From Candidatus Liptonbacteria bacterium (GTDB taxonomy: Bacteria > Patescibacteriota > Minisyncoccia > UBA6257 > 2-01-FULL-56-20): a DNA stretch of 55,524 nucleotides. This document shows positions 7,015-34,257 of the stretch, piece after piece. Made by a program: the position numbers and the translations under genes. The notes under the pieces are model-generated. The model saw only the letters and a list, made by a program, of their open reading frames with translations, did no database searches and had not been told where the DNA came from. The first letter of the stretch is position 1. The number at the start of each line of letters is the position of its first letter. Location: positions 1-55,524 of the forward strand of contig JACQKU010000021.1 in assembly GCA_016204335.1 (NCBI GenBank), read 5' to 3'.

Positions 7015-7116
7015 GGTAGTAGGTGTCAAGTATCATGTGTCATATATCAAGAGAGGTTGAACAAAAATCAGTTTGGATTTCTATCCTGATACTTGATACC
7101 TGATACGTGACACTTT

Positions 7117-7593: not shown

Positions 7594-7667
7594 TGTAGTA
7601 TTCGCGAATAATGCTAATTGTTATTAATAATGCGAATGGTTATGATTCGCGTTATTCGCGATTACTT
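7594..7667. repeat. Intergenic hairpin built from gcgaat/attcgc words
   Basis: gtattcgcgaataatgc...aataatgcgaatgg...gattcgcgttattcgcgattac contains inverted gcgaata words. Confidence 0.45.
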
Positions 7668-8369: not shown

Positions 8370-8525
8370 GATTGGTTATCAACGAATAACGAATACGATT
8401 TCTCCTCCGAAGGCGGATCCCCGCCTGCGTCCGACTTCGGACGGGCAGGCGCCTCTGGCGGAGAATTTACGAATCTACTTTTTATTTGTTCATTCGTATT
8501 TAATTCGTTATTCGTTGATGGATTT
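8370..8525. mobile_element. Palindromic element with a nested GC hairpin core and cgaataacgaat arms
   Basis: The core ggcggatccccgcctgcgtccgacttcggacgggcaggcgcctctggcggaga (8411-8465) recurs inverted at 22727-22800 with one mismatch by eye. Arms caacgaataacgaatacga and tcgtatttaattcgttattcgttg. Confidence 0.7.
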
Positions 8526-11441: not shown

Positions 11442-11478
11442 TGTTCAATTTTACCACAAAAGCGTCTATCTACTTTTT

Positions 11479-11556
11479 CTATATCCCCAAGTCGCCGTTC
11501 GCCACCAACGGTAATTTTTTATTCTTGAGATGCGCGAAATATCCCGTGGTCGCAAT
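11479..11556 (-). pseudogene. Decayed duplicate of the last ~25 codons of tsaD
   Basis: Reverse complement translates to IATTGYFAHLKNKKLPLVANGDLGI*. The real TsaD C-terminus is IAAAGYFAHLKNKKLPAVANGDLGI*. DNA is about 85% identical by eye to 11711-11790. Confidence 0.75.
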
Positions 11557-11595
11557 TTAGCGGATTTATCTCCGCCGAATAAATTAATCTCCCAA

Positions 11596-11634
11596 GTGCT
11601 ATGCTACAGCATAGCACTATGCCGCGGCATAGTG
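11596..11634. repeat. Overlapping perfect palindromes (REP-like), family member 1
   Basis: agtgctatgct-ac-agcatagcact overlaps cactatgccgcggcatagtg. The latter recurs at 21878-21907 and 22564-22597. Confidence 0.75.
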
Positions 11635-11710
11635 GTCTGACTCGAGTGCTAGAAGAATCTAACGATGCAGTTTTTGTCATATATTTGTCTATGCGTCCGC
11701 AACGAAGTAG

Positions 11711-12880
11711 TCAAATTCCAAGATCGCCGTTTGCGACCGCTGGTAATTTTTTATTCTTGAGATGCGCGAAATATCCCGCGGCCGCAATCATCGCGGCGTT
11801 GTCACCGTTGTATTCGTTATGCGGAATGTAAAATGTTAAATGGGACATGTCGCATTCCGCTTTTAACATTTTCCTCAAAGATTTATTCGCCGCCACGCCG
11901 CCGCAGAGAATGATTGAGCGCGCGCCATATTCTCTCGCGGCGCGGAGGGTTTTTGAAACGAGGACGTCGACGACGGCTTGCTGGAATGATGCCGCTATGT
12001 CGGCAGTAGAAGCGAATCCGTGCGAATCTATTTGCGAATTGGTGCGAATTTTTACTTTTCGCGGATTTTCGCGAACATTTTCGCGTGTTTTCGCTTCTAT
12101 ATCCCTTAGGTAATAAAAAACAGAGGTTTTAAGGCCCGAAAAGCTGAAATCGTAATCCTTCGTGTTAATCATCGGGCGGGGAAAGTTAATAGATGGTTTT
12201 TCTCCCTTCGACAGGGGCTTCGAGTGAGCCTCAGCCGAACTCCTCAGGGCGAGACGCTCGATCTCCGGCCCGCCGGGGTAGGGAAGTTTCAGCATTCGCG
12301 CCACTTTGTCGAACGCTTCGCCGGCGGCGTCGTCTCTCGTCTCTCCGAGTTTTTTCCATTTTGTCAGTGAGTCCATTTTCAAAAGAATCGTATGCCCGCC
12401 GCTTACCAGCAACGCGATTGCCGGGAACATTCGGGGCGAGGGGAAAGCGGCACGCGGCACGGATTTTTGAGGTAGCAGGAAACTATACAAATGGCCGTTA
12501 AGGTGGTTCGCGCCGATGAGCGGTTTCTTATATTTTTTCGCGAGTTCTTTAGCGAATGTTATTCCGGCCCACAGCGCAGGCTCAAGCCCAGGCCCCGTTG
12601 TTACTGCTATTAAATCGACATTTTTTATTCGCGCCGCTTTCGCGTTTTGTTTCGCAGTTGCTTCGCCAAAAATCTTCCGATATAGTATCGGAAGATTTTT
12701 AAGGTGTTCCCTTTTCGCGAGATTCGGCACCACGCCGCCGAACGGCCGGTGTATTTTTATCTGCGAGGAGATGAGGTTTTTTAGAACCTTAAAACGAGGA
12801 TGTTTTAAACCGCCGCTCGCCTCGACGAGCGCAATGCCGGTTTCGTCGCAACTGGTCTCTATGGAAAGTATTTTCACCAA
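11711..12880 (-). CDS. tsaD: tRNA N6-adenosine threonylcarbamoyltransferase TsaD (Kae1/Gcp family)
   Basis: ILSIETSCDETGIALV and GANHLNGHLYS (HxxxH metal site) motifs with family-wide similarity. Contains a repeat-word insert (RENVRENPRKVKIRTNSQIDSHGFAS). TTG or GTG start. Confidence 0.9.
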   Translation of the reverse strand: MVKILSIETSCDETGIALVEASGGLKHPRFKVLKNLISSQIKIHRPFGGVVPNLAKREHLKNLPILYRKIFGEATAKQNAKAARIKNVDLIAVTTGPGLEPALWAGITFAKELAKKYKKPLIGANHLNGHLYSFLLPQKSVPRAAFPSPRMFPAIALLVSGGHTILLKMDSLTKWKKLGETRDDAAGEAFDKVARMLKLPYPGGPEIERLALRSSAEAHSKPLSKGEKPSINFPRPMINTKDYDFSFSGLKTSVFYYLRDIEAKTRENVRENPRKVKIRTNSQIDSHGFASTADIAASFQQAVVDVLVSKTLRAAREYGARSIILCGGVAANKSLRKMLKAECDMSHLTFYIPHNEYNGDNAAMIAAAGYFAHLKNKKLPAVANGDLGI

Positions 12881-12881
12881 A

Positions 12882-13301
12882 TTACAGCGGAAGAATATTT
12901 ATTTTTCCCGAGTCCTCGGTATCGGCGAGCAAAGTGCGCACTCGGAGTTCCGGATATTTCCCTTTCACAATTTCAGCGGCTTTCATTAAATGGTCGGAGT
13001 GTTTTTTTCTTTCTTCATCGCGAGATGAAAAAGCGTTTCTTCCTCCGTACGCTCCGCAGTCTGTGTGATTTTTTAAAATGAGGTCGGTGATGCCGTGTAG
13101 CCGCTTTGAGGTTTCAATCTGCTTCATAATAAATTCCCGCTCGGATTCATGTTCCGGAGCCGCGATGTTTTTCGCCGCGCCGGCAACCGAAACAATGTCG
13201 CAATCGTCCAAAAGATTGTTTTCTTCGAGATAGCGTTTCACCGTGCCGCCGAGCCGGAAATCCATGCAGTGAATCATGAGAGTTTTACATTGGTGCGTCA
13301 T
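12882..13301 (-). CDS. Small protein with beta-carbonic-anhydrase-like motifs (CxDxR ... HxxCG)
   Basis: IHCMDFRLGG and NHTDCGAYGG are spaced as the Zn-ligand motifs of beta-CA. 139 aa, native-like composition, no SD. Confidence 0.45.
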   Translation of the reverse strand: MTHQCKTLMIHCMDFRLGGTVKRYLEENNLLDDCDIVSVAGAAKNIAAPEHESEREFIMKQIETSKRLHGITDLILKNHTDCGAYGGRNAFSSRDEERKKHSDHLMKAAEIVKGKYPELRVRTLLADTEDSGKINILPL

Positions 13302-13446
13302 ATATTCACGAAGATAGTTAGTATTCTTACAAAGTTAAAGTTTTTAGGCAAGATGTCGTATGTATCAGTGTATTAAATTGGTTCGAGCCCCGGATGTTCT
13401 GGGGCTCGTTGGTGCTATGTGCTATGTAGAGGTTTGGGGGGGCAGG

Positions 13447-14016
13447 TCAATGAAGGGCGGTGTGCCGGTGGGTGACCCATTTCTCCGGAGGAACGAGATA
13501 GTTCCTCATCTTTGCTTCTCCGGTCAGCGGGCGGTAGTCCACGTGGAGGAGCGTGAGCACCTCCAGTTGCGGGTTGAACTCCACGAGGCGAGTGCGGGCG
13601 GTCACGAGGTCTCCGACGACTTCTTCCGGCTCCATGCCGGTATCCAGTGCCCATCCGCAAGGCAGATGAGCTCGGAGCTTGAAGTAGTTTATCCCAGTTA
13701 ACCTCGGCGCCTGAACGACATCCGAGAAAAACACCTCGTGAGCATTTGGCGAGTTTCGGTTTGACTTTGACTCCGGAACCAGCCGAGGAGCTCCTCCATG
13801 CCATCGGAACAGATGGCTTTGCGGGTCCTCGTGGGGCTCGTAGCCACGGAGACCGGCGAGATGTTTCATCCCTTCATCGACTCGCCGATAATCCCCGCAG
13901 CAGATATCGACGGCCGGCATCCGGTGTTTCAGATGCCGCGACTCGATATCTTCGAGCAACCCGTTTGCTATTCCGTCCCTGACGAATTCGAGTATCCTTG
14001 GCTCGTGAGCGGTCAC
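13447..14016 (-). CDS. G+C-rich hypothetical protein, divergent relative of the neighbour (CCGDYR ... HLPCGWA)
   Basis: GTG start preceded by aagggggcgtt. Hand count of line 13561-13620 gives 40/60 G+C. Motif pair resembles 12882-13301. Confidence 0.5.
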   Translation of the reverse strand: MTAHEPRILEFVRDGIANGLLEDIESRHLKHRMPAVDICCGDYRRVDEGMKHLAGLRGYEPHEDPQSHLFRWHGGAPRLVPESKSNRNSPNAHEVFFSDVVQAPRLTGINYFKLRAHLPCGWALDTGMEPEEVVGDLVTARTRLVEFNPQLEVLTLLHVDYRPLTGEAKMRNYLVPPEKWVTHRHTALH

Positions 14017-14053
14017 AACGCCCCCTTTCGCTGAAAATAATAGTGAATTGCGC

Positions 14054-16300
<2,247 letters not shown>

Positions 16301-16307
16301 GATAAAA

Positions 16308-17279
16308 TTATCTCAATGATTCCACTCCAGATGTTATCTCAATTATTTCTCTTGTAATCGACGCCTGGCGGGATTTATTGTATTCGAGGTTCAGTTTCGA
16401 GCCGAGGTCGTCCGCGTTGTCCGATGCGTTTTTCATCGCGAGCCGGCGCGCCGCGTGTTCGGATGCGTTCGCTTCGAGAATCAGATGGTAAATCTGCATG
16501 GTCACAAGATGGGGGACGAGTTCGTTCAGAACCGCTTCCGGCGACGGCTCGATGAGATAATCAACTGATGACTGATGACTTATGACTGATGACTGTTTGA
16601 ACTCGGAGAACCGGCCGGTTTGAGGAATAATTTCTTCCGCGGTTTTTTTGATGCTTTCGAAATCAACCGGAAGTGCGACACGGCGGAGCGGTTCCTGCCG
16701 GAGCGCGCTGCGGAAATGGGTCGAGAACACGATAACGCTGTCCCATTTTTTTTCAAGATAGCCGGAAACCAAAAGCTCGGCAATCGGCTTTACTTCTTCA
16801 ATGGTCGTGAAATCGCCGGCGCGCAGGAATTTATGCGCCAAAGTAAATCTTTTTTGCAAATAATTAGCCGCTTTTTGACCAACGGAAATGAAAACAGGGT
16901 TTAGGGTAGAGGGATTAGGGCTTAGAGTTTTTTCTTGTTTTAGGAACTTTTCAAAGTCGCGAATCACAGCGCTGTTGAACGAACCGGCAAGGCCTTTGTC
17001 CGACGTGACGAGCACGAGCGCGGTTTTTCGAATTTCTCTTTTTTGGAGGAGTGGAGGTATCTCTATATCTCCAAGACGGGCCTGCCCGCCGTAATTTTGA
17101 TGAAGGCGGGCGAGGTTCGCGAGAAAATCCAAACTCGCGAACGCGTATGGGCGCGAAGCGAGCGCGATTTCCTGCGAACGGCGCATTTTGGTCGCCGCGA
17201 CCAGTTCCATCGCTTTTGTGATTTGCCCGATATTTTTGACGCTCTTCGCGCGCCGTTTTATGTTTTGAAGCGATTCCAT
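16308..17279 (-). CDS. atpG: F1 ATP synthase gamma subunit
   Basis: MESLQNIKRRAKSVKNIGQITKAMELVAATKMRR at the N-terminus and ASITREIIEITSG at the C-terminus. Contains repeat-word inserts. Confidence 0.92.
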   Translation of the reverse strand: MESLQNIKRRAKSVKNIGQITKAMELVAATKMRRSQEIALASRPYAFASLDFLANLARLHQNYGGQARLGDIEIPPLLQKREIRKTALVLVTSDKGLAGSFNSAVIRDFEKFLKQEKTLSPNPSTLNPVFISVGQKAANYLQKRFTLAHKFLRAGDFTTIEEVKPIAELLVSGYLEKKWDSVIVFSTHFRSALRQEPLRRVALPVDFESIKKTAEEIIPQTGRFSEFKQSSVISHQSSVDYLIEPSPEAVLNELVPHLVTMQIYHLILEANASEHAARRLAMKNASDNADDLGSKLNLEYNKSRQASITREIIEITSGVESLR

Positions 17280-17369
17280 GGTTTTCTCTACGAATTACGA
17301 ATTTTTTACGAATATACGAATAAACTTAAGTCCTTTTCGTATATTCGTACATTTTCGTATTTCGTAGCA
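17280..17369. repeat. Intergenic tacgaa-word hairpin
   Basis: ctacgaattacgaattttttacgaatatacgaa pairs with ttcgtatattcgtacattttcgtatttcgtag. Confidence 0.7.
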
Positions 17370-18902
17370 TTATTCTAAAAATTTTTGTATTGCCGCCTTC
17401 AATTTTTCCTCGGTTTCGGCCGAGAGCTCTCCGCTTTCCCTGATGGGTTTCAAAATGTCGGCTTCGTGGAATTTTTCGACGTATTCGACGAAAGAGTTTT
17501 CTTTTTCTTTCACCGAGGCGATTTCGAGGTTGTCGAAATAATCGTTGAGCGCCGCGTATAAAATAACAACCTCTTTTTCAAAAGGCATCGGCGCAAGGTC
17601 ATTTTGTTTGAGAACTTCGGTGATTACCTGACCGTGCTTGATTCTTTTTTTGGTGGTTTCGTCCACGTCGGCTGCGAATTGGATGAATGCCTGGAGTTCG
17701 CGGAACTGCGCGAGCGCGAGCCGGAGGCGGCCGGCGACTTTTTTCATCGCTTTCGTCTGCGCCGCGGAGCCGACACGCGAGACAGAAAGCCCGACGTTGA
17801 TGGCCGGCCTGATGCCCTGGTAAAAAAGTTCGCTTTCAAGATAAATCTGGCCGTCTGTGATTGAGATTACGTTGGTCGGGATGTACGCCGTGACATCGCC
17901 GAGCTGTGTTTCGACGATGGGGAGGGCGGTCAGCGAGCCGCCGCCTTTCTCTTTCGAGAGTTTTGCCGCGCGTTCGAGCAGGCGCGAGTGGAGATAAAAA
18001 ATATCCCCGGGATACGCTTCGCGGCCCGGCGGCCGGCGAAGCAAAAGCGAAATTTGCCGGTATGCCCAGGCGTGTTTCGAAAGGTCGTCGTAAATTACGA
18101 GCGCGTCCTGTCCTTTGTCGCGGAAGTATTCTCCGATGGCGCAGCCCGCTAGCGGAGCAAGATACCACAGCGCGGCAGGGGACGAAGCGGGCGCAGAAAC
18201 AACGACTGTGTGCTTTAAGGCGTCGAAATTTTTTAGAGTTTCGACGATTTTCGCGATTTTCGATTCTTTTTGCCCAATCGCTACATAGATGCAAATAACT
18301 TGTCGCTTGTCGCTTGTCGCTTGTCGCTGGTTAATTATCGTGTCCAGAACCACCGCGGTTTTGCCGGTTTGCCGGTCGCCGATGATGAGTTCTCGCTGGC
18401 CTCTGCCGATAGGTATCATCGCGTCTATGCTTTTTATGCCTGTGTGAACGGGCGTGTTGACGGGTTCGCGGTCCATAACCGAAGGCGCTTTATTTTCCAA
18501 AAAGTAGCGTTCGGATTTTTGAGCCGTCTTGGCGGAGAATATCGGGCCTTTGCCGTCCGAAGGATTTCCCAGCGGGTCAATAACTCTGCCTGCGAGTTCG
18601 GGTCCGACTTCGATTGAAAGAACCTGACCGGTATTCCGCACGAGGTCGCCGCTTTTGATATGCTGGTACTCTCCGAGGACGAGCGCGCCGATAGTTTCTT
18701 CTTCAAGGTTAAGAGCCACGGCTCGCACAACTTCTTCCGATGTTTCGATGTCGAGGAGCTCCTGGCTCAAAGTTTTTCCGAGGCCGGAAATTTTCACGAT
18801 GCCGTCGCTTACTTCGATTACTTTCCCGACATCCTCCCATTTCTTCTCGTCTTTGTATCCCTCGATTTCCTTTTTCAGTTTTTCTATTATTTCGTAGCTC
18901 AT
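17370..18902 (-). CDS. atpA: F1 ATP synthase alpha subunit
   Basis: [10 protein letters not shown] Walker A and full-length alpha similarity. Start placed at MSYEIIEK. Contains the QATSDKRQ insert from a (cttgtcg)4 tract. Confidence 0.97.
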
Positions 18903-18923
18903 AGTGTTTAATTTAAAAATCAA

Positions 18924-19056
18924 ATCTCAAAAATCAAAATGACAAATCAAAATTTTCCGCCAAAGGCGGATCCGCCTCGGGCGGAAAAAAGACAAAGCAT
19001 GAATTCTTTTTACATTTTACACTTTCATTTTGCATTTTGATATTTGCACTTTGCAT
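18924..19056. mobile_element. MITE-like element with GC double-hairpin core (divergent copy)
   Basis: caaaatgacaaatcaaaattttccgccaaaggcggatccgcctcgggcggaaaaaaga...ttacattttacactttcattttgcattttgatatttg. Confidence 0.7.
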
Positions 19057-19434
19057 TTAGGAAAATAGCTTATCTATTTTCCGCTTGAGCGACCCGTCGA
19101 ACTGGGTTTCATCGTTGACGGTAATTTTTACTCCCGCCAACAGTTCCGGATTTATTTTTTCTTCAACGACATCGGTCTTTATGAGGAAATGTCCAAATTT
19201 TGTTTTAAGATTCGCTACTTCTCGCGCGGTTTCGATTGTCACGCTCCGCCGCCCTGTTTTCACCCTCAAAATTTTTTCCGTTTCCTCAAAAATTTTTTTA
19301 AGCTGATGCGTGTCGTTATTTTTTTCGATAACTTCAAAAAAATTTTTGACGAGACGGGTTTCTTCGGTCTTGTTCAAATCGCCGGCGGCGAGTTCGCCGA
19401 ATGCCTGCGCGTATAGTTTCGAAGGATATTTCAT
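19057..19434 (-). CDS. atpH: F1 ATP synthase delta (OSCP) subunit, short form (125 aa)
   Basis: YAQAFGELA at the N-terminus and LLAGVKITVNDETQFDGSLKRKIDKL at the C-terminus are delta-like. Lies between atpF and atpA. Confidence 0.75.
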   Translation of the reverse strand: MKYPSKLYAQAFGELAAGDLNKTEETRLVKNFFEVIEKNNDTHQLKKIFEETEKILRVKTGRRSVTIETAREVANLKTKFGHFLIKTDVVEEKINPELLAGVKITVNDETQFDGSLKRKIDKLFS

Positions 19435-19943
19435 GCTGTCTGTTTCGCGCTTTTTAATTCTCCAATCGCCTTTTTAATCAAAACTTCGTCGATTGTTTCC
19501 GGCGACAATTCCACGGTTTTCGCTATCGCTTCCCTGACGAGTCCGACCGCTTCTTTCCTGACAAGTTCCCGCGCTTCCTGATTTTTCGTCTCTATAATCA
19601 GCTCGGCGTTTTTCAGAATTGCGTTTTCTTTTTCTTTCGCCTGCGACAGAAGAGCCGATTCCAAAGTTTTCGCTTTTTGTTCGGTTTCCCTAAGCATTGC
19701 AAGGGCGTCCTGCTCGGCTTCCTTCAGTTTTTCTTTTTTAAGGAGATTCGCTTCACTGAGTCGGGTTTCGGCCTCTTCGGATTTTCTGACGCCGTCCTCG
19801 ATTTTTTCCTTTCGTTCTTTCAAAATTTTCAATACCGGCTTGTAGACCAGGAAAGTGAGAAGGGTGACGAGAATCAAAAAATTGACTGCTTGCGAAGTAA
19901 GCAGTCGCCAGTCGATGCCGAGTTGTTGGAAAAGTTCTTGCAT
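19431..19943 (-). CDS. atpF: Fo ATP synthase subunit b
   Basis: Single N-terminal TM (LTSQAVNFLILVTLLTFLVYKPV) followed by a long charged helix. Operon position fits. Confidence 0.8.
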   Translation of the reverse strand: MQELFQQLGIDWRLLTSQAVNFLILVTLLTFLVYKPVLKILKERKEKIEDGVRKSEEAETRLSEANLLKKEKLKEAEQDALAMLRETEQKAKTLESALLSQAKEKENAILKNAELIIETKNQEARELVRKEAVGLVREAIAKTVELSPETIDEVLIKKAIGELKSAKQTA

Positions 19944-23638: not shown

Positions 23639-25333
23639 ATGTCTATGCACAGATTTTTTGAAATTCTTCCGGGGACGCTGGCGTGGCTCACGCTTATTTT
23701 GATAGTTATTTTTTCCCGGTGGTTGCCGGTTTTTACTTCTGTTTTTATCATTCTTTTCGATATCTACTGGCTTTTGAAAACGGTTTATCTTTCTCTTCAT
23801 CTCCGCTCTACATTCTCGGCGATGAAAAAGAATCTCAAAGTGAACTGGCTTTCGAAGCTTGAAGAACTTGAAAATAATGCGAATGTTACGAATAACGGCA
23901 CGAATGCAACGAATAAAATTCGTAGCATTCGCACTCCATTCGTAGATTCGAATTATGGTATGTCTTGGAGAGACATATATCACCTTGTGATACTTCCTAT
24001 GTATCGCGAGCCGTATGAAGTCGTGCGGGAAAGTTTTGAAAGTTTGGTCAACGCGAATTATCCGAAAGAAAAATTTATCGTAGTTCTCGCAACGGAAGAG
24101 CGCGGGGGCAGGGCCGCGGAGGAAACCGCGCGAAAAATCGAGCGGGAATTCGGTTCGCAATTTTTCAAATTTTTGCTTACGAAGCATCCCTGGGATATTT
24201 CGGGTGAAATTCCCGGCAAGGGCTCGAACGAAACGTGGGCGGCCAAAGAGGCGAAGCGGTTAATCATAGATCCCTTGCTTGAAGCCCAGTCAAAGTCCGT
24301 GCCGGAATTAACATTAGAAGCGAAACTTTGCGAAAATCAGGCGAAACAACGCGAAAACTTTCGCAAGGATTCGCGCATGGATTCGCATAGTTTCGCATAC
24401 GGAAACGTCTTAGTTTCCGTTTTCGACATCGACACCCAGATTTTTCCCGAATATTTCGGCCGGCTGACATACGTATTTTTGAACGCGCCAAACCGGCTCC
24501 GCGCCATTTATCAGCCGATTCCTCTTTTTACGAACAACATTTACAAGGCTCCCGCGCTCGCGCGCGTCATTGCGTTTTCAAGCACATTCTGGCAGATGAT
24601 GCAGCAGGCGCGGGCCGAACGGCTCACTTCTTTTTCTTCGCAGTCGCTGCCATTCCCCGTATTGCTCGACATCGGCTTTTGGCACACCGATGTCGTTTCC
24701 GAGGATTCAAGAATTTTCTGGCAGGGGTATCTCCGGTATCACGGCGATTTCCGCGTTGAGCCGCTTCTGTATCCGGTTTCGATGGACGCGAATGTCGCTC
24801 CGGGGTTTTGGGAAACGATGAAAAATAACTATCGCCAGCACCGGCGCTGGGCATGGGGCTGTGAAAATATTCCCTATATGCTCGATGGATTCCGGAAAGA
24901 CCCGCTCATACCAAAAATAAAAAAGTGGTACTGGTCGTTCAACGCCATCGAGGGATTTCATTCCTGGGCGACCAATGCGCTGATGATTTTCGCTTTGGGC
25001 TGGTTGCCGGTGCTTCTCGGCGGCAAACACTTTAACGCTTCGCTCCTTTCTTACAGCTTGCCGCAGATTACAAAATTCATAATCCAGCTTTCGATGCTCG
25101 GCGTCGCGAGCTCGGCAATCGTCAGCATTCTTCTTTTGCCGCCACGGCCGAAATGGTTCCGCTGGCATCATTACTTTCTCTATTTTTTACAGTGGATTTT
25201 TATTCCGGCGACGCTCATCGTTTTCGGCGCGTTTCCCGCGCTTGAGGCGCAGACGCGGCTCGCGCTCGGCGGTAAATGGCGTTTGGGATTTTGGCCTACT
25301 CCTAAGAGTAGGAGCGAAATTATGCGAAAATAA
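23639..25333 (+). CDS. Membrane-embedded family-2 glycosyltransferase (processive type)
   Basis: N- and C-terminal TM bundles. PMYREPYEVV...NYPKEKFIVVLATEE, FDIDTQ and RQHRRW (QxxRW-like). Two repeat-word inserts (NANVTNNGTNATNKIRSIR, CENQAKQRENFRKDSRMDSH). Confidence 0.8.
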   Translation: MSMHRFFEILPGTLAWLTLILIVIFSRWLPVFTSVFIILFDIYWLLKTVYLSLHLRSTFSAMKKNLKVNWLSKLEELENNANVTNNGTNATNKIRSIRTPFVDSNYGMSWRDIYHLVILPMYREPYEVVRESFESLVNANYPKEKFIVVLATEERGGRAAEETARKIEREFGSQFFKFLLTKHPWDISGEIPGKGSNETWAAKEAKRLIIDPLLEAQSKSVPELTLEAKLCENQAKQRENFRKDSRMDSHSFAYGNVLVSVFDIDTQIFPEYFGRLTYVFLNAPNRLRAIYQPIPLFTNNIYKAPALARVIAFSSTFWQMMQQARAERLTSFSSQSLPFPVLLDIGFWHTDVVSEDSRIFWQGYLRYHGDFRVEPLLYPVSMDANVAPGFWETMKNNYRQHRRWAWGCENIPYMLDGFRKDPLIPKIKKWYWSFNAIEGFHSWATNALMIFALGWLPVLLGGKHFNASLLSYSLPQITKFIIQLSMLGVASSAIVSILLLPPRPKWFRWHHYFLYFLQWIFIPATLIVFGAFPALEAQTRLALGGKWRLGFWPTPKSRSEIMRK

Positions 25334-25388: not shown

Positions 25389-25814
25389 ATGCGAAATAAC
25401 GCGAAAATTACAAATCAAGACCTGCTTTATCCCGAATTAAGTTACGAGGCGACAGGAGCTATTTTTGAAGTTTGGAAAAAGCTCAGTCCTGCATTTAAAG
25501 AGAGCGCGTATCAAAAAGCGCTCGCGGAAGAATTCAAATCTCGAAACATTCCATTCGAAAGCCAAAAAGCAATCCCGATTTACTATAATGACAAAAAAGT
25601 TGGCAGTTATGTTCCGGATTTTTTGCTTGACGGCAAAATCCTCATCGAAATCAAACATCTTCCTCGTTTGACTTTTAAAGAAAACAAGCAAGTGTGGTAT
25701 TATTTGAAAGGTACGGAATACAAACTTTTGCTTTTGGTCAATTTTGGAGGGAACAATATTGAAATTAAAAGGCGTATCTATGACAAGGCGCGTATTCAGA
25801 AAAATTCAAAATAA
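25389..25814 (+). CDS. GxxExxY-family protein (PD-(D/E)XK fold)
   Basis: ESAYQKALAEEFKSRNIPFESQKAIPIYYNDKKVGSYVPDFLLDGKILIEIK matches the family pattern. Confidence 0.8.
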   Translation: MRNNAKITNQDLLYPELSYEATGAIFEVWKKLSPAFKESAYQKALAEEFKSRNIPFESQKAIPIYYNDKKVGSYVPDFLLDGKILIEIKHLPRLTFKENKQVWYYLKGTEYKLLLLVNFGGNNIEIKRRIYDKARIQKNSK

Positions 25815-26673
25815 CTTTCGCAAACTTTCGCATACTATTTCGCGAGGTTTCGCTTCCTGCCGTCTTCGACGGCAGGGTTTCACCGTCATCGAACTCCTTA
25901 TTTTTTCCGCGATTTTTTCCATCATCGCCATATCGTTTTTCGGCGTGCTTGTTTCCGTCATCCAGATTCAGACGCGGCAGACCGCGGTTGTCGAGGTGAA
26001 TCAGCAAAGCCAGTTTCTTCTGGAAACAATCCAACGTTCCGTCGAACGTTCGAGTTTGGTCGAGTTGCCGCCGGATGCCGCCACGACTACTCTCAAATTG
26101 CGGATGGCTTCCTCGACTGTCGACCCGACGTACATTTATTTGAACGGCAACTCCGTTTATTACAAGGAGACCGACGGCGGCGCCGTCCAGCCGCTGACCT
26201 CCGATAAAGTAAATGTTTCGAATCTCGTTTTTACAAAGCGCGCGAATCCTCCCGGGCATGATTCTGTAAGCGTGGCATTCACAATCGCGTATAACACATC
26301 GAATATAAAACGGGCGTTTCTCCAGAATCTTCAGATTTCCGTTGCGCGGGTGAGCGCCGCGACATTTGATTCTAATGTGATTCCATCTGCAAACAGCACT
26401 TACAATCTCGGCGTTACTTCCCAGGCCTGGCAATCCGTGAACAATCTGATTTATTTCAGCGGTTCGAATGTCGGTATCGGCGTTTCAAGTCCGGGACAGA
26501 CGCTCGAAGTGAACGGCGGCGTGCGGCTGAATACCACAACGGTCAAACCGGCATGCGATTCCGCCCAACGAGGCACGTTCTGGGTTGTTGAATCCGGCTC
26601 CGGCGTCAAAGACAGCGTTCAAGTGTGCGTAAAAAACGCTTCTGATACATACATGTGGTCAGTTATTTATTAA
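25780..26673 (+). CDS. Prepilin-type N-terminal methylation-domain protein (type IV pilin-like)
   Basis: QGFTVIELLIFSAIFSIIAISFFGVLV matches the G/FTxIE prepilin motif. C-terminus has SNVGIGVSSPGQTLEVNGGVRLN, the motif repeated in the 1374-aa protein. Start uncertain (25744 or 25780) with an unusually long leader. Confidence 0.75.
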   Translation: MTRRVFRKIQNNFRKLSHTISRGFASCRLRRQGFTVIELLIFSAIFSIIAISFFGVLVSVIQIQTRQTAVVEVNQQSQFLLETIQRSVERSSLVELPPDAATTTLKLRMASSTVDPTYIYLNGNSVYYKETDGGAVQPLTSDKVNVSNLVFTKRANPPGHDSVSVAFTIAYNTSNIKRAFLQNLQISVARVSAATFDSNVIPSANSTYNLGVTSQAWQSVNNLIYFSGSNVGIGVSSPGQTLEVNGGVRLNTTTVKPACDSAQRGTFWVVESGSGVKDSVQVCVKNASDTYMWSVIY

Positions 26674-27592: not shown

Positions 27593-28042
27593 ATGCTTTC
27601 AAAAAAATTTATCATCGCATTATTGGCGGTTATCATTGTCGCATTCATCGGCTTCGGTATCTGGCTTGGTTCTTATTTGAGCTCTCGCCAGCCGAATCCC
27701 GCGAGCGCGTCTGAATATTCGGCGGTCTATCTTTCAACCGGCGACATCTATTACGGCATTCTTTCATGGTTTCCTTTGCCGCGCCTTACGAATGTGTGGT
27801 CTTTGCAGAGAAGCGGCGACCAAAACAATCCGCAAATAGCCCTTGTGGCGTTCAAGAATTCATTGTGGGGGCCCGTTGATGAGATACGGCTCAATCCGAA
27901 GCAAATCATTTTCTGGACCCGTCTCCGTAACGACAGCCAGGTCCTGAAAGCGATTCGGAATCCGGATTCGCTCCAGCCGCAAGCGCAACAGCCGGCGGCT
28001 TCTCCCGCGCCGACAAGCACGCTGCGCGCTCCTGTCCGCTGA
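27593..28042 (+). CDS. Hypothetical membrane-anchored protein
   Basis: N-terminal TM (FIIALLAVIIVAFIGFGIWLG) and a Pro/Gln/Ala-rich tail. Same strand as its neighbours with tight spacing. Confidence 0.6.
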   Translation: MLSKKFIIALLAVIIVAFIGFGIWLGSYLSSRQPNPASASEYSAVYLSTGDIYYGILSWFPLPRLTNVWSLQRSGDQNNPQIALVAFKNSLWGPVDEIRLNPKQIIFWTRLRNDSQVLKAIRNPDSLQPQAQQPAASPAPTSTLRAPVR

Positions 28043-28101: not shown

Positions 28102-31100
28102 ATGTCTTCTTTTAAAAATCCCCAATCCGGTTTTCGAGCAAAGTTTCTCCCGTGCGCTATCTGCGCGCTTGTCATTCTTTTAATTTCCGCCTTTTCGTAT
28201 TATTTCTTTTCTCATATTAATTCCACCTTCGCTTTCACCGGCCCATCGACTTCCGTAGGCATCGGCGGCGGCGCCATCGGCGTTGATTCCTCCAACAACT
28301 TGAGCATCGGCACTTCCGCGACCCAGCCGGACACCAAACTTCTGATTGTCGTTTCCTCCACGGACGCATCCAATTTCGGGTTCAAGATACTGCAACCCGG
28401 CCAGAATCCGATATTTGTCGTCAGAAACGACGGCAGTATAGGAATCGGGACTGCGAATCCAACAAGCACATTGACTGTTGTAGGCGCCGTTAAAAGCACA
28501 AATGGCGGTTTCATTTTTCCCGACGCCACAATTCAAACAACAGCTTATCTGGGCGGGTCCCAGGCGATTAACGCTTCAAATATTACCGCCGGCGTATTCG
28601 GCGCGGGCAACTTCGCCTTTCCTTCGTCGCTCGGAATCGCGACATCAACGCAGGTAGGTCTTCCTCAATCGCTCTCAATCTACGGCGGAGGGTATTTCAG
28701 CGGCAACGTCGGCATCGGGACGGCGGGACCGAATGCCAAGTTATCCATTGGAAATAATGTCGCGACGGGATTTCTCGATAATTATAGTGAATACCAGATA
28801 ATGCTCTACGACGCCGGTACAGCCGCCGGTTCGTATGGAATTGGCATTAAGTCAGGCACAATGGTCTTTAATGCCGGCGCCGCCGCCTATAGTTTTGATC
28901 GTAGCGGAAATGCCACCACGATGACCCTTGATGGCTCCGGCAACGTCGGCATCGGGACGACGAATCCGAGCAATTTACTGCATGTCAGTGGATCAAACCA
29001 GGGCATCCGATTAACCGAAACAGGGGCTTCGAAGAGTTGGCTTCTCCAGAACTCTGGTTCAGATCTTCTCCTTACAGAAGTTGGTTCTGGAAATCGTGTT
29101 GTATTTCAAGCGGGCGGCAACGTCGGCATCGGTATGACTGCGCCGAGCACCAAACTCGAAGTCGCCGGAAACGTGAGCTCGACAGCGTTGTGTCTCGGCG
29201 GAACTTGCAATACGACATGGCCGTCCGGCGGCGGGGGAGGATCGATTTCAACTTCGTCTGCCATCACTGCCGGATACTTCCCGTATTGGGCGAACACGAC
29301 CGGCGGTCTGAACGGCACATCAAATATTTTTCAATCTGGCGGCAACGTCGGCATCGGGACGGCTGCGCCGGCAGGCAAGCTTGATGTATCAAGCGGCGGA
29401 GCCGGCATTTCCGCCGGCGATTTGGTTGTTGATACTGCCAATAAAACGGTATATGTCGGGCGGCAGAGCGGAAACATTGGCGACAGCAGTTTGTTTATCA
29501 CCAGAAATAGATTTGGAACAAAACTCCTCGTTGTTGATACGAACAATCAAATCTCATATTTTGAAAGCGGCAACGTCGGCATCGCCACCACTACTCCTTC
29601 TTTTCCTCTGACGGTCCAAGGCAATGCGTATGTTAGCGGCACGCTTACTGCCGGCAGCATATCCGGTTCATACGCCGGCACAGTCTCCGCGGCGAACGTC
29701 ACCGCCGGCGTATTCGGCGCGGGCAACTTCGCCTTTCCTTCGTCGCTCGGAATCGCGACATCAACGCAGGTAGGTCTTCCCCAATCGCTCTCAATCTACG
29801 GCGGAGGGTTCTTCAGTGGCAACGTCGGCATCGGGACGGCGGCGCCCGGCCAAAAACTCGAAGTCGCAGGCAACGTATCTTCAACCGGCCTTTGTCTCGG
29901 CGGAACTTGCAATACGACATGGCCTGCGAGTGGAGGCGGAGTTACATCGGTTTTTGCCAGAACCGGAGCAGTAATTGCGACAACCGGAGATTATGCGGTG
30001 GCGCAAGTTACGGGAGCCGCCCCTCTGGCGAGCCCGACATTTACCGGCATTCCGGCGGCGCCCACCGCCGCAGGAGGAACTAATACAACGCAACTGGCTA
30101 CAACGGCATTCGTAACTACTGCCGTAAGCGGCGCGACTATCACCGCCGGCAATGTTTCTTCCGGTTCTTTCGGTTCAAACACCGGCGGCGGGAATTACAC
30201 CTTTCCCGCGAGCGTTAACTTCGCCGGTTCGGGCATTTGGAATTCATCCGGCAATGTCGGCATAGGGACGGCGGCGCCGGGAGCGAAGTTGGAAGTAGTC
30301 GGAAATACGCTTCTGAACGCTAATAAACTTGGCTTTACAAACACAGGCGGGATAATGTTCAACGGTTTGTCTGATTGGAATTGGCAATTAAGAACAACAA
30401 GCGGTTGGAATTATGTATGGACAGGCGCCAGTTCCGGAGAGAGAAGTTGGATTTTTGCCGACAAGACCAATAGTACAAACGATGACACTTGGACTGAGCG
30501 GTTCAAAGTTAGAATGAGCGATGGACAAACATATATGGCGGGCAACGTCGGCATCGGGACGGCGGCGCCGGGAGCGAAGTTGGACATACGACCTATTTCT
30601 TTTGCCGGCAGCCAAAGCGGCGGCATAAAGCTTGATACGCTCACTGGGAATTGGCCGTCAGGAATGTATTTACGGAGCGATGTCGGCGGTACGCCAAGAT
30701 TGGCGCTTGATATTGTTTCTACGGAAGCGTTGTCTATCGTAAACGGCGGCAACGTCGGCATCGGGACGGCGAGTCCGCTCGCTAAGTTACATATTTCTGG
30801 TAGCAGTTCGGGAGCCTCAAATATACGGCTGACGAGCACAATCGTCGGCGGGCGGTCGTGGGAACTGAACCCATATGCTATAGGTGTTAGCGATACCCCG
30901 TTTACGATCCGAGACGTTACCGCAGGGGCAGATAGGATTACAATTGACTCTTCCGGCAACGTCGGCATCGGAACGGCAAATCCGGGAGCACGACTCCAGG
31001 CAATCGGAGCGGATAGTTTGGGCACTTCGTTCGCGTTTTACGCCGGCGGAACAACTGGAACGGGACTGACCATGACCAACGCGAACAACGTCGGCATCGG

Positions 31101-32226
31101 GACGACGGCGCCGGGGACTTCGTTACATGTAAATTTGCCAACTCAAACCACAGCAACCGTAAATTCATTACTTATCTCAAGATGGACAAGACCACAGACA
31201 GGAGGTGTTAAATGGGGAAATTCTATGGATATGCTTTTGGGCAGTTATGGAACTTCGATGAATTCTCAATCTCGCGTTGATTTCAAATTAGCAGACGGCG
31301 GCACTGATTTACCAGACACTACAGTAATGACACTCCAGGGTAACGGCAATGTCGGCATAGGAACGAGCAACCCAAACAGGAAACTTGACGTAAGCGAAAG
31401 CGGTGATGGAATAGCTTTTGGTCGGCAGTCGGATAATATCTTGTCGATCCAGTCCTATATCGATGGCCACTGGGCGGACCGAACCACATACGCGGACGGA
31501 TGCTGCAATAATCTTGTTCTCCAGCCGGATGTGGGTGGTGTCGGCATCGGGATACAGGAAGCGCCAAACGCGAAGCTGGAGATTGGCGGTTCCAACGCTG
31601 CCGGTGAAACCCGCATGATTTTTTCCACGAACAGTTCTCCAAAGTCGAATAGATTTTTTATTAAGACAGATCTTGATGTCAGTTCAAACAATGATATCCT
31701 CGAGTTCAGTTCAACAAATGTAGGCAATATTATTGTCTTAAAAGGAGACGGCAAAGTTGGTATCGGGGCGGCGCCGTCCAGCTATCAATTGCAACTTTCC
31801 ACAGATTCTGCCGGAAAACCGAACGGTGGTTCATGGGCTAACTCTTCCGATGAAAGGCTGAAAACAAACATCAAGCCCGTTAAAGACGCACTTGCCAAAA
31901 TAACCAAACTTCAACCGATACTGTTTGATTGGCGAAATCCATTGCTACATGGCAACGCGGTTTCGAGTGGCGGTTTCGCGGCACAGCAAATCGCCGAGGT
32001 ATTCCCAGAGTTTGTAACAGATGTCCCTTGCGCCGGCGCCGATTGTTCGCTTACCGATAACGGAAAAGTGAAATCGCTCACCTTGCCGTTCACGTTTGAC
32101 GCTTATCTTGTGGGCGCCGTCAAGGAACAGCAGACCGAAATTGACGCGTTGAAATCCGAAAACGCCGGATTAAAAATAGAAATAAATTCTTTGAAAGCCC
32201 GCATAGACGCGCTGGAGAAAAAATAG
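28102..32226 (+). CDS. Giant (1374 aa) membrane-anchored fibre-like protein with GNVGIGT-xxP-xxKLEV repeats and a C-terminal S74 intramolecular-chaperone domain
   Basis: About 15 copies of ggcaacgtcggcatcgggacg (GNVGIGT). C-terminus is NSSDERLKTNIKPV...LQPILFDWRN...GGFAAQQIAEVFPEFV plus a coiled coil, as in endosialidase/tail-fibre chaperone domains. Confidence 0.85.
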   Translation: MSSFKNPQSGFRAKFLPCAICALVILLISAFSYYFFSHINSTFAFTGPSTSVGIGGGAIGVDSSNNLSIGTSATQPDTKLLIVVSSTDASNFGFKILQPGQNPIFVVRNDGSIGIGTANPTSTLTVVGAVKSTNGGFIFPDATIQTTAYLGGSQAINASNITAGVFGAGNFAFPSSLGIATSTQVGLPQSLSIYGGGYFSGNVGIGTAGPNAKLSIGNNVATGFLDNYSEYQIMLYDAGTAAGSYGIGIKSGTMVFNAGAAAYSFDRSGNATTMTLDGSGNVGIGTTNPSNLLHVSGSNQGIRLTETGASKSWLLQNSGSDLLLTEVGSGNRVVFQAGGNVGIGMTAPSTKLEVAGNVSSTALCLGGTCNTTWPSGGGGGSISTSSAITAGYFPYWANTTGGLNGTSNIFQSGGNVGIGTAAPAGKLDVSSGGAGISAGDLVVDTANKTVYVGRQSGNIGDSSLFITRNRFGTKLLVVDTNNQISYFESGNVGIATTTPSFPLTVQGNAYVSGTLTAGSISGSYAGTVSAANVTAGVFGAGNFAFPSSLGIATSTQVGLPQSLSIYGGGFFSGNVGIGTAAPGQKLEVAGNVSSTGLCLGGTCNTTWPASGGGVTSVFARTGAVIATTGDYAVAQVTGAAPLASPTFTGIPAAPTAAGGTNTTQLATTAFVTTAVSGATITAGNVSSGSFGSNTGGGNYTFPASVNFAGSGIWNSSGNVGIGTAAPGAKLEVVGNTLLNANKLGFTNTGGIMFNGLSDWNWQLRTTSGWNYVWTGASSGERSWIFADKTNSTNDDTWTERFKVRMSDGQTYMAGNVGIGTAAPGAKLDIRPISFAGSQSGGIKLDTLTGNWPSGMYLRSDVGGTPRLALDIVSTEALSIVNGGNVGIGTASPLAKLHISGSSSGASNIRLTSTIVGGRSWELNPYAIGVSDTPFTIRDVTAGADRITIDSSGNVGIGTANPGARLQAIGADSLGTSFAFYAGGTTGTGLTMTNANNVGIGTTAPGTSLHVNLPTQTTATVNSLLISRWTRPQTGGVKWGNSMDMLLGSYGTSMNSQSRVDFKLADGGTDLPDTTVMTLQGNGNVGIGTSNPNRKLDVSESGDGIAFGRQSDNILSIQSYIDGHWADRTTYADGCCNNLVLQPDVGGVGIGIQEAPNAKLEIGGSNAAGETRMIFSTNSSPKSNRFFIKTDLDVSSNNDILEFSSTNVGNIIVLKGDGKVGIGAAPSSYQLQLSTDSAGKPNGGSWANSSDERLKTNIKPVKDALAKITKLQPILFDWRNPLLHGNAVSSGGFAAQQIAEVFPEFVTDVPCAGADCSLTDNGKVKSLTLPFTFDAYLVGAVKEQQTEIDALKSENAGLKIEINSLKARIDALEKK

Positions 32227-32269
32227 TTTCCTCCATATTTCGGTCTTGCGATGGCCTAAATATAAAAAA

Positions 32270-33136
32270 ATGCGACTAGAAATTATAAAAGAAACATTCG
32301 CCGATTATTCCAAAAGGTACTGGAAGTTCTGGGCCGTTCTTTATGTGTTCACGGTTCTCGCGGAAGTTATGCGGGAAATTTATCTTGAGCGAGTCGCGAT
32401 TTATTTGTCAGGGATAACTTACAATCCGGTTATTTTATTCAATTTGCTCATCCGCGAAATGCTCGCCTCGCCGGTGGTTTTTTTGGCAGTGGCAGGAGGG
32501 GTTTTGTTTAATCTCTGGGGGTTTGCATCGCTTTATTTTTTATTTTCCGGAGCATCATTCATAAAATCGGCATCAGAAGGATTGAAGCATATTTTGTCTT
32601 ACTTTGGTTTGGTGGTTGCCGGAGGCATTATTGTTTTCGCTGGATTTCTCGTTCTTGCAATGCCGATTCTTCTCCTTCTCAACGCGTTTTTGGGCGATTC
32701 GCTCAATCCGAACGTCGCTATGGCGATTTTTCTCGCGTTCGGGATTCCCGGCTGGTGGCTCCTCGTTTCGTTTTCAGTAGCGCCATTCATTCTGCTTCTT
32801 GAAAAAAGAAAGATATTCAACGCGCTTCGGGAAAGTTATCGCCGTGTTTCGTTCGCGCTCTGGCAAACCATTCAGACGCTTATTGTCGCGTTCGTTATGT
32901 CTGCGGCCGCCTATTATGCTTTAAGCTGGATAATTTTCTCTTTGAAACTTATTTTTATTCAAGACCTTTCTTTCCGCGGAGAAACATCGCTTAGAATTTT
33001 TGTTTACTCGATTCCCTGGGTGGTTGTCGCGAGTTTTTTCGATTTGGCGGTTTACAGAATATATCTCCGCCTTAAACCGCTTTCGGATTCTCTGCCTTCC
33101 GAAAATGAAGCAATCCGCAAGGATTTTTTAGGATAG
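32270..33136 (+). CDS. Hypothetical multi-pass membrane protein
   Basis: At least 6 hydrophobic segments. Start placed at the ATG for MRLEIIKE; the ORF track's TTG is at 32246. Confidence 0.6.
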   Translation: MRLEIIKETFADYSKRYWKFWAVLYVFTVLAEVMREIYLERVAIYLSGITYNPVILFNLLIREMLASPVVFLAVAGGVLFNLWGFASLYFLFSGASFIKSASEGLKHILSYFGLVVAGGIIVFAGFLVLAMPILLLLNAFLGDSLNPNVAMAIFLAFGIPGWWLLVSFSVAPFILLLEKRKIFNALRESYRRVSFALWQTIQTLIVAFVMSAAAYYALSWIIFSLKLIFIQDLSFRGETSLRIFVYSIPWVVVASFFDLAVYRIYLRLKPLSDSLPSENEAIRKDFLG

Positions 33137-33147
33137 AGATCGAATAT

Positions 33148-34257
33148 ATGAATATGAATAAAATACCGACCAAAATAGCGACAGGCATATTGATTATGGC
33201 GGTCATTGCCCTGGCGATTACTCCGATACCGGCGTACGCGGGAGGGAACGGGCTGTCGATAATCGGTATTGTCTTGGGAATCATCGTTGCCATACTTTGT
33301 TATGGCACATGCATACCACTTATCGTGGGCGCCCTCGGAATAACCGGAGCGGCGCTCGCAACTACGGTTGTCGTGCTGACCTATGTGTCGTATGGGATAA
33401 CCGCGGCAGGCCTTGGATTTCAGTCATACGCTACTTCTTCCTGCTCCGGAAATTACGATCCGGTTTTTGGAACCTGTACGACATCAAAAAGATTAAGCCA
33501 GCAGATTTTTACATCAACAAACGCCAAGTTTACCGGAATTGATGTGAACGGCGCGCCGTCGCCGGAGGAATTTGAAGGTAATCCGAATGTCACGGCAACG
33601 ATTAAATGGGAGGCAGACGCGCACCCCGGCTTGGTAAATTACCTCGTCGTTTCCGACAAAAACGGCGGCACAGGCATACCCGCTTCCGCCGGACCAAACG
33701 GCAATGTTTGTAGTGCCGGCCCGCAAGGCAATGTTTTTAATTCTCTTTCTTACGGCAAGACATATGTTGCGGAAATTTGGTTTGCTTCCTGTTTTCAGAT
33801 TAGAGGAGGAAATCTGACCAAAAATGCGGTTCCCACTTGTAGCGGCTGCGGTTACGATGCCGTGGGCGCAAAAATAGAATTCACGACACCGATGCTCCCG
33901 CCGCTCGGTATTGATATTAAAGCCAACGGGAAGGACGGAGGATTCGCTTTTGTCCCGGGCACCCCAATTGTTCTTTCTTGGACGTCGCAATACGCGACTT
34001 CCTGTTCCGCCGAGGGCAGTTGGAGCGGTTCAAAGCCGACTTCAGGGACGGAGACGGTTACTCCTAAAAAAGGAAACGAGGTTTACACGATAGCGTGTAC
34101 GCGGCCTGACGGCGGCATGGCGCAGGATTCGGTTTCCGCGGCGGTGTCGTCGCCGGGATTCAAAATCAGCGCTCCTCCTCCAAACGGCAAATCGCCGGAT
34201 AATGCGGATAATGCGGAGAATGGCAAAAAACCGTTTTTTAAAGAAGTTGTTCCTTAA
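33148..34257 (+). CDS. Hypothetical membrane protein with a Cys-containing extracellular Ig-like region
   Basis: Several N-terminal TM segments, then IVLSWTSQYATSCSAEGSWSGSKPTSGTETVTPKKGNEVYTIACT, a pattern typical of beta-sandwich surface domains. Confidence 0.6.
   Translation: MNMNKIPTKIATGILIMAVIALAITPIPAYAGGNGLSIIGIVLGIIVAILCYGTCIPLIVGALGITGAALATTVVVLTYVSYGITAAGLGFQSYATSSCSGNYDPVFGTCTTSKRLSQQIFTSTNAKFTGIDVNGAPSPEEFEGNPNVTATIKWEADAHPGLVNYLVVSDKNGGTGIPASAGPNGNVCSAGPQGNVFNSLSYGKTYVAEIWFASCFQIRGGNLTKNAVPTCSGCGYDAVGAKIEFTTPMLPPLGIDIKANGKDGGFAFVPGTPIVLSWTSQYATSCSAEGSWSGSKPTSGTETVTPKKGNEVYTIACTRPDGGMAQDSVSAAVSSPGFKISAPPPNGKSPDNADNAENGKKPFFKEVVP

Follow-up and report, generated by a model that had tools for sequence, protein, structure and literature searches.

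We analysed a stretch of 55,524 nucleotides (the window), which covers positions 1–55,524 of contig JACQKU010000021.1 in assembly GCA_016204335.1 of a Candidatus Liptonbacteria bacterium and stems from a groundwater metagenome. Its largest open reading frame (ORF), at 28102–32226 on the plus strand, runs through 1374 codons with no internal stop, as a first-pass annotation made from the sequence letters had stated, and encodes a Gly-, Ser-, Thr- and Ala-rich protein of 139 kDa before processing that we call the fibre. The protein contains 15 [VI]GIG cores, 12 of which fit the pattern G[NK]VGI[GA] and lead into a T-x-x-P-x-x-K-L-(E/D)-V-like stretch. Elsewhere in the window we found genes for ATP synthase, a class I tRNA synthetase, TsaD, four tRNAs, RecG, EF-G and EF-Tu. 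The fibre gene belongs to a cluster with the order atpB, DoxX, GT2-like synthase, pilin-like protein, cupredoxin-fold protein, 149-aa membrane protein, fibre and RecG; the pilin-like gene and the membrane proteins that had been annotated at its side were recovered by the Pfam N_methyl profile and by sequence inspection.

The same cluster order was present, as far as contig ends permit, in at least eight other loci of Patescibacteria metagenome-assembled genomes (MAGs; loci L014, L015, L017, L018, L020, L021, L022 and L025), which are labelled as Patescibacteria, Liptonbacteria, 'Saccharibacteria' or just as bacterium. The closest homologue of the fibre, the syntenic protein P0002, is encoded in another MAG with the arrangement of the window. 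With Patescibacteria MAGs as the closest syntenic loci and groundwater as the source, the earlier assignment to the Candidate Phyla Radiation (CPR) stands.

At its C-terminus the fibre carries a Peptidase_S74 intramolecular chaperone. The Pfam profile PF13884 matched aa 1249–1305 over profile positions 1–57 of 58 (E = 4.6e-12; 46.5 bits against a cut-off of 22). The Ser/Lys dyad is formed by S1249 and K1254 within SDERLK, and S1249, D1250 and K1254 were invariant in an alignment of the fibre with 20 homologous C-termini (alignment A3, 21 sequences). The same stretch aligned with the S74 region, likewise SDERLK, of the solved phage tail fibre 8jov (E = 1.8e-5). In an AlphaFold2 monomer model of aa 1068–1374, only aa ~1250–1374 were confidently predicted, with block means of the predicted local distance difference test (pLDDT) between 77 and 98. 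Most of the modelled shaft and tip (aa 1068–1248) stayed below 50, which is neutral as to their fold because the model is a monomer of what would be an intertwined trimer. Foldseek comparison with the PDB returned intramolecular chaperones only at E < 0.1: the MyRF ICA (7dc3, E = 8e-5, TM to target 0.59), the K1F endosialidase (3gw6) and GA-1 (3gud). Profile, dyad and predicted fold therefore agree and confirm the proposed S74 module as a bona fide chaperone. The first-pass annotation had added a terminal coiled coil. A terminal helix does exist (aa 1331–1373 in the AlphaFold2 model), but it is the chaperone's own helix rather than a separate element and would be released together with it. By analogy with the K1F endosialidase and with Bd3182 (PMC10769870), the cut would fall between S1249 and D1250, leaving S1249 on the fibre and freeing D1250–K1374 (125 aa, 13.6 kDa); if the leader is removed as well, a mature chain of 1205 aa and 121 kDa would remain.

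The N-terminus had been read as a membrane anchor. It consists of a basic n-region (RAK), a 22-residue hydrophobic core and ...STFA, followed by FTGPSTS. Since relatives place AxA-type sites directly ahead of a conserved F-x-G-P start (VRA/QTFVGP, ANA/FTGPSS and ASA/QFIGPS, with the slash at the site), the fibre probably begins with a cleavable signal peptide and a base domain rather than with an anchor. The base domain has the consensus FxGPSxxxGxGxGAIGVDxSNNLSIGTS...TKLLIVxSST...VVRNDG. A phmmer search with aa 44–112 against 1.84 billion representative proteins gave 214 matches at E ≤ 1e-3, 71 of them at E ≤ 1e-10. In nearly all 214 the match began at about residue 25–58, just past the leader, in proteins of 76–2145 aa in length. 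We then used a four-sequence N-terminal alignment (A2) to seed a scan of one genome per species, a 16-sequence alignment (A1) being too diverse for this purpose. The scan returned 62 loci, and matches to the first ~60 mature residues were limited to Patescibacteria-labelled or unlabelled MAGs and, weakly, one Woesearchaeota (30% identity, E = 1e-4). Homologues that lack a leader start with phage-type N-termini, for example MAIKFLN...VGIGT.

Is the fibre then a phage protein? The first-pass annotation had offered a remnant or domesticated phage receptor-binding protein as an alternative, and the gene could be the tail fibre of a degraded prophage, or serve a tailocin or contractile injection system with its genes in another part of the genome. 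Of the thirteen PHROG families that matched the protein, nine are annotated as tail or tail fibre. The distal part and chaperone (aa 981–1373) were covered by phrog_9942 (E = 7e-39, the best match) and phrog_5481 (E = 1e-18), and a phage-fibre connector motif in mid-protein (aa 612–680) was matched by phrog_2631 (E = 4e-11, aa 630–677) and phrog_7032 (E = 2.5e-7), both annotated 'tail fiber protein'. By tblastn, 145 phage records, among them cyanophage fibres annotated 'chaperone of endosialidase', and 12 viral contigs gave partial matches. However, all phage matches are partial and at most 35% identical, and the secretion leader is absent from phage-type homologues. Nor does the setting fit. 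Among the ORFs tested, no phage structural, integrase or lysis genes occurred within 20 kb on either side: none of nine flanking ORFs scanned matched a phage structural family, and 20 flanking ORFs compared with Pfam and PHROGs gave housekeeping or unknown proteins only. The gene keeps its place between housekeeping genes in the at least eight other genomes. Synteny and housekeeping flanks thus leave the prophage alternative unsupported, and we rejected it; this version of a phage origin is largely refuted, a recent domestication is unlikely, and a phage-derived structure of any kind appears highly improbable to us. The gene is chromosomal, as first annotated, and the two findings that the annotation had named as fatal to its reading, a missing S74 domain or dyad and a clear prophage context, were not made.

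The repeats of the fibre are conserved down to the DNA. An 18-nt word, GGCAACGTCGGCATCGGG, matched 13 times with at most three mismatches, six times exactly, always on the plus strand and always inside the fibre gene (repeat families D1–D3), whereas dinucleotide-preserving shuffles gave an expectation of 0.10 matches. The roughly 15 DNA-conserved GNVGIGT-type units of the first-pass annotation are well founded in this respect. Codon choice within GNVGIG was far more uniform than predicted from the gene's own usage (homogeneity z = 11.8): GTC was used in 10 of 10 copies versus 29% elsewhere, and GGG in 7 of 10 versus 9%. We relied on this codon-homogeneity statistic, as a likelihood-based test is uninformative where a motif codon, GGG, is rare. 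A dual-coding explanation was rejected, the antisense frames across the repeats being short and broken. The longest of them (30411–31025, minus strand, 204 aa, with repeated VPMPTLP) is the repeat word read in reverse and almost certainly no gene.

The same consensus word dominates the orthologous fibres of eight other loci (z = 6.5–19.7). It also dominates in unrelated Patescibacteria loci with a G+C content of 40–45%, where exact copies make up 18 of 38 motifs (L051) and 16 of 24 motifs (L058). Among the fetched loci, 104 of 253 motifs in Patescibacteria-labelled loci were exact, versus 1 of 94 in other phyla (Fisher P = 2e-16). Loci in which the word is frozen at synonymous sites are the window, L014–L029, L045, L048, L051, L057 and L058, and it recurs 10–38 times per locus. 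In the four source metagenomes the genome contigs had a depth of ~5–30, and the bins with certain copies of the word had summed depths of 1,000–19,000 and gathered up to ~2,900 short contigs per run. The high summed depth indicates that the word and its flanks are common to very many other sequences of the community. Candidate reasons for the freezing are selection for recombination proficiency, continual exchange from genome to genome, or another process.

The gene is a mosaic of repeated modules. Module A is present twice, at aa 157–207 and 529–579, and the two copies differ at 4 of 142 nt (28585–28726 versus 29701–29842). The stretch 29688–29941 is a chimera of 28572–28726 (94%) and 29116–29239 (77%), joined exactly at the 18-nt word. 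P0002 is 43% identical to the fibre over the first ~590 aa, and homology ends at the DNA word, at aa 588. Across the syntenic loci, aa 1–600 of the fibre are 30–43% identical, compared with 41–75% for the neighbouring proteins overall, and aa 601–1374 can barely be aligned (~25–30% in patches).

The ends of the fibres differ as well. At one and the same locus we found S74 tips (window and L018) and three unrelated non-S74 domains (L014, L020 and L022). The last 160 aa of the window's fibre are 50–61% identical to S74 domains of non-syntenic proteins, but only 34% to the syntenic tip of L018, so the two S74 tips are not orthologous. Two of the non-syntenic relatives possess the same base domain on fibres of 704–729 aa. 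In L018, two fibre genes lie in tandem: the second shares with the S74 fibre a near-identical leader and base as well as long identical stretches of shaft, but ends in a different, Cys-rich tip. This second L018 fibre (17029–19474) is split into overlapping ORFs (17029–18681 and 18515–19474) and is frameshifted or mis-assembled. In locus L001, a 113-aa Kelch-repeat ORF (14661–15002; Kelch_1, E = 5e-19) lies directly 3' of a non-S74 orthologue; it could be a fibre tip that became detached or a piece of a different surface protein.

Tips are thus swapped at the same locus, and module junctions fall at the DNA word. The best explanation is that the fibre gene evolves by module exchange, in which recombination at the repeat core duplicates, removes and swaps shaft modules and tips. 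A diversity-generating retroelement as the source of variation was rejected, the mismatches in the 142-nt pair (T/C, A/T, T/C and C/T) not being adenine-specific; there was no reverse transcriptase among the annotated neighbours or in the part of the window's ORFs that was scanned. Apparent 'joints' in metagenome contigs were not taken as rearrangements either, as they are short unitigs of other organisms that have the repeat core in common.

A more far-reaching proposal, which we regard as rather doubtful, is that in groundwater Patescibacteria the fibre genes make up a single recombining pool of shaft and tip modules that spans the community and is held together by a word of 18–30 nt (GGCAACGTCGGCATCGGG...), with the fibre placed on a pilin-like adaptor. 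The word may have been kept the same at silent sites in deeply diverged genomes because modules are exchanged at this junction, and the pilin-like adaptor of this lineage may carry the matching fibre module. In the boldest form of this proposal, the word may be actively maintained by targeted gene conversion, uptake-linked recombination or homing elements. Such a pool may be the cellular counterpart of phage host-range shuffling.

The features of the gene and its neighbourhood are listed in Table 1. Promoter and terminator scans at the fibre locus revealed nothing usefully above background, and NCBIfam holds no family for the fibre, the 149-aa protein or the two genes downstream.

Table 1. Features of the fibre gene and neighbouring genes in the window (aa, residues of the fibre)
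Feature	Position	Strand	Residues	Evidence or remark
GT2-like membrane glycosyltransferase, 564 aa, QHRRW motif; first conserved cluster gene	23639..25333	+		Inspection
Type IV pilin-like protein, prepilin motif RRQG/FTVIELL	25780..26673	+		Pfam N_methyl (22.4 vs 21.2)
Membrane-tethered cupredoxin-fold protein, 190 aa	26846..27418	+		Pfam Cupredoxin_1, E = 1e-8
149-aa protein, N-terminal membrane helix, always directly 5' of the fibre	27593..28042	+		49–63% identical in 8 syntenic loci
Fibre: signal peptide (predicted cleaved)	28102..28233	+	1–44	Sequence inspection, sites in relatives
Fibre: N-terminal base domain, conserved 'presentation end'	28234..28506	+	45–135	Alignments A1 and A2; phmmer
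Fibre: module A, copy 1, NITAGVFGAGNFAFPSSLGIATSTQVGLPQSLSIYGGGYFSGNVGIG	28570..28722	+	157–207	Direct repeat D4; occurs 3 times in syntenic orthologue P0002
Fibre: 13 copies of DNA word GGCAACGTCGGCATCGGG (GNVGIG core; capping-loop motif VGIGTxxPxxxL)	28702..31767	+		
Fibre: module A copy 2, one rung and Cys knob (LCLGGTCNTTWP)	29686..29931	+	529–610	
Fibre: phage-fibre-type connector motif (...APLASPTFTGIPAAPTAAGGTNTTQLATTAFV...)	29935..30141	+	612–680	PHROG matches
Fibre: distal shaft and tip, 8 [VI]GIG rungs with variable segments between	30142..31845	+	681–1248	
Fibre: Peptidase_S74 intramolecular chaperone and C-terminal helix	31846..32223	+		Pfam, alignment, AlphaFold2, Foldseek
Two lineage-specific genes: 296-aa multi-pass membrane protein and 369-aa surface protein	32246..34257	+		

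Among the neighbours, the GT2-like protein displays a D,D,D...QHRRW pattern, as processive GT2 polysaccharide synthases typically do, and is 55–67% identical across the syntenic loci; Pfam gave nothing for it at E ≤ 0.01, and its match to PgaC/IcaA was weak. The cupredoxin-fold protein (41–59% identical) comprises an N-terminal helix as tether, a long Ser/Ala/Pro-rich linker and a domain in which one His and a CxxC are kept while the other copper ligands are absent. Cupredoxin-like genes also adjoin fibres in the distant Patescibacteria loci L019, L026–L029 and L036. The 149-aa protein, which matched no family in Pfam, PHROGs or NCBIfam, is a candidate anchor of the fibre. Downstream, the two lineage-specific genes had neither family matches nor relatives in any of the 62 loci. 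They sit in a variable zone between fibre and RecG, where relatives have additional fibres or other genes. A free-standing PD-(D/E)XK nuclease gene (25389–25814, plus strand; PDDEXK_3, E = 5e-30) lies between the GT2-like and pilin-like genes and overlaps an upstream extension of the pilin ORF. In the closest relative the same nuclease domain is found inside an enlarged RecG of 901 aa (L001, 19187–21892), and a copy occurs near the L029 fibre; the gene looks like a small mobile or selfish insert.

The pilin-like protein is the best conserved member of the cluster (49–75% identical in the syntenic loci, 49–74% in a set of nine orthologues). Its prepilin motif was kept in nine of nine orthologues, with G-1 and E+5 (G5 and E10) invariant and F at +1, and it gave weak matches to GspJ and ComGF. 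The C-terminal ~90 aa (AATFDSN..PS...LGVTSQ.W..NN.IYFSGSNVGIGVSSPGQTLEVNGGVRLN..KP.C..QRGTFW) are homologous to module A, rung and Cys knob of the fibre (BLASTP E = 2e-5, 44% over 52 aa). This fibre-type end is retained in most of the nine orthologues, those of L018 and L020 diverging past the VG core. The AlphaFold2 model comprised a helix (residues 8–62) and a beta domain (63–169), both part of a confident pilin body, with the fibre-like unit disordered at pLDDT below 50. Judged from these sequence relationships, the protein is a candidate adaptor for the fibre.

A narrower version of a cell-made fibre is that the fibre, instead of being fixed to the envelope, sits on a type IV pilus or pseudopilus by way of its pilin-like neighbour, whose fibre-type module would either act as a dock for the trimer base or fold jointly with it. 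Conservation of the pilin-like gene and its motif, and the homology of its disordered end to fibre units, are in line with such an arrangement. So is the Foldseek result, in which the bimodular minor pilin PilB of S. sanguinis (7ba2) was the only pilin among the top matches; its probability of 0.97 is accompanied by an E of 0.08, and neither this nor any other match was significant. Beside the cluster, however, we identified no pilus ATPase, platform or prepilin peptidase, and a fibre of three-fold symmetry is not satisfied by a single pilin unit alone. We consider a pilus-borne fibre unlikely.

We consider it very probable that the fibre is a secreted, S74-assembled product of the cell itself. 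Its sequence is homologous to solved pieces of the mosaic adhesive trimer (MAT) fibres of Bdellovibrio bacteriovorus (Bd2133, 8ond, E = 1.8e-8; 8ojn, E = 0.002). Because of this analogy with common sequence, and because of the fast mosaic evolution of the distal part, attachment to host cells, as proposed in the first-pass annotation, or their recognition suggests itself as the function, although we see the chances for and against such a job as even. As an overall explanation, a secreted, S74-assembled adhesive fibre of the Patescibacteria cell accounts best for the data, and we hold it to be right with some reservation.

The reservation stems from several points that speak against this explanation. 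The hydrophobic core of the leader, with its 22 residues, is long and compatible also with an uncleaved anchor. Shaft and tip were predicted at pLDDT below 50, and as a monomer only. RNA runs were searched for the fibre gene, and none of them holds it. The linkage to the neighbours could reflect gene order alone, given the position of the cluster beside the atp operon, and DoxX and the cupredoxin could be respiratory relics. Finally, short-read unitigs break at every repeat core and leave two near-identical copies uncovered, so that the exact number and order of modules depend on the metagenome assembly. As to the 142-nt repeat, we argue that the module order across it is real: the 4.1-kb frame is intact, and the orthologue repeats the same module.

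Alternatively, the role of the fibre might be purely structural, as a surface coat, that is, a spacer of the envelope or glycocalyx, biofilm matrix or a protective layer with no specific partner cell. A processive GT2-like synthase opens the cluster, as might be expected for such a coat. Variability could then serve escape from phages or grazers that use the fibre as receptor, and the fast evolution and tip swapping fit selection by predators of the cell equally well. However, the S74-capped tips studied so far (K1F endosialidase, T5 fibre and Bd3182) are binding or enzymatic ends activated by cleavage (PMC10769870), and alternative tips at one locus resemble a repertoire of binders. We therefore assign only a small likelihood to a structural coat.

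For the adhesive fibre we propose the following course of events. The chain would be exported by the Sec pathway and lose its signal peptide between about A44 and F45. The S74 chaperone would bring three chains into register, with the long terminal helices trimerising, and folding would produce a beta-helical shaft of intertwined chains, with a capping loop at every VGIGTxxPxxxL unit. The Ser1249/Lys1254 dyad would then cut the SD bond, free the 13.6-kDa chaperone fragment and expose the tip of a fibre of ~121 kDa per chain. Displayed at the surface, the fibre would be kept on its producer by the base domain, probably with the 149-aa, the cupredoxin-fold or the pilin-like protein as partner, while the variable distal part may bind a substrate or some structure on the surface of another cell.

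To our knowledge, little has been established about how Patescibacteria cells reach their hosts and keep hold of them, and type IV pili are the only experimentally supported device for host adhesion in the CPR, with evidence from oral Saccharibacteria alone. A fixed chromosomal site, conserved partners and a swapped distal end are the signature expected of a host-range determinant. The locus therefore offers a concrete candidate for host recognition together with an unexplained feature at the nucleotide level. The S74 tip, the base domain, the 149-aa partner and the pilin-like protein are clonable targets for binding and structural studies. By means of the frozen word, module exchange can be followed in metagenomes, and the word might also be used to probe environmental DNA for fibre genes. 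Our literature searches, which were not exhaustive, found no paper on S74- or MAT-type fibres in Patescibacteria and none on the GNVGIGT motif.

How does the fibre compare with known systems? Single parts of the locus resemble phage and pilus proteins. With phage S74 proteins (K1F, 3gw6; GA-1 neck appendage, 3gud; T5 L-shaped fibre pb1; tail fibre 8jov) the fibre shares the C-terminal chaperone, the SDxxxK dyad and the C-terminal helix. It differs from them in its secretion leader, in lacking a virion-attachment N-terminus and in its place among housekeeping genes, and the identity is low and partial, as described above. The nearest published counterpart to the DNA word comes from the T-even adhesins, in which hypervariable segments lie between short conserved motifs (glycine-rich in gp38, His boxes in gp37) and crossovers in these motifs swap specificity determinants (Tetart et al. 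1998, cited in Trojet et al. 2011, PMC3157838). In a similar manner, module duplications and orthology of the fibre end exactly at a conserved repeat core. Unlike the T-even motifs as described there, the 18-nt word is frozen at synonymous sites and occurs in fibre genes of many distantly related cellular genomes. The pilin-like neighbour resembles PilB in its class III signal peptide, its helix and beta domain and its extra C-terminal module, but the module grafted onto it is a fibre-type unit instead of a vWA domain, and the structural match is the non-significant one reported above.

By sequence and presumed working mode, the fibre is closest to the MAT fibres, in particular to their S74 subgroup with members such as Bd3182 (Caulton et al. 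2024, PMC10769870). This family is defined by a conserved base and a swappable tip, and its capping-loop motif reads V-G-G/N-pi-x-x-P-x-x-x-L (PMC10769870). As in the MAT system, the gene is chromosomal, a conserved N-terminal end is followed by a long shaft with the capping-loop motif (15 times here), and alternative S74 or non-S74 tips sit on a conserved base. MAT fibres carry a signal peptide, to which the hydrophobic leader of the present fibre probably corresponds. MAT producers live on other cells, as we also hold for Patescibacteria. The differences lie in the producer, a monoderm-type ultrasmall Patescibacteria cell instead of a diderm predator, and in gene number, with one fibre gene in this window versus 21 in Bdellovibrio. 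They also include the conserved cluster with a pilin-like protein that holds a fibre module. The base domain, almost exclusive to Patescibacteria in our scan, appears to be of another type than the ~130-aa beta-rich Bdellovibrio N-domain. Patescibacteria are absent from the list of MAT-bearing organisms given with the original description (PMC10769870). The architecture itself is unsurprising after 2024; what sets the fibre apart are the Patescibacteria producer, the apparently different base domain and the conserved partner genes. The concept of MAT fibres would thus be extended from diderm predators to ultrasmall, monoderm-type episymbionts.

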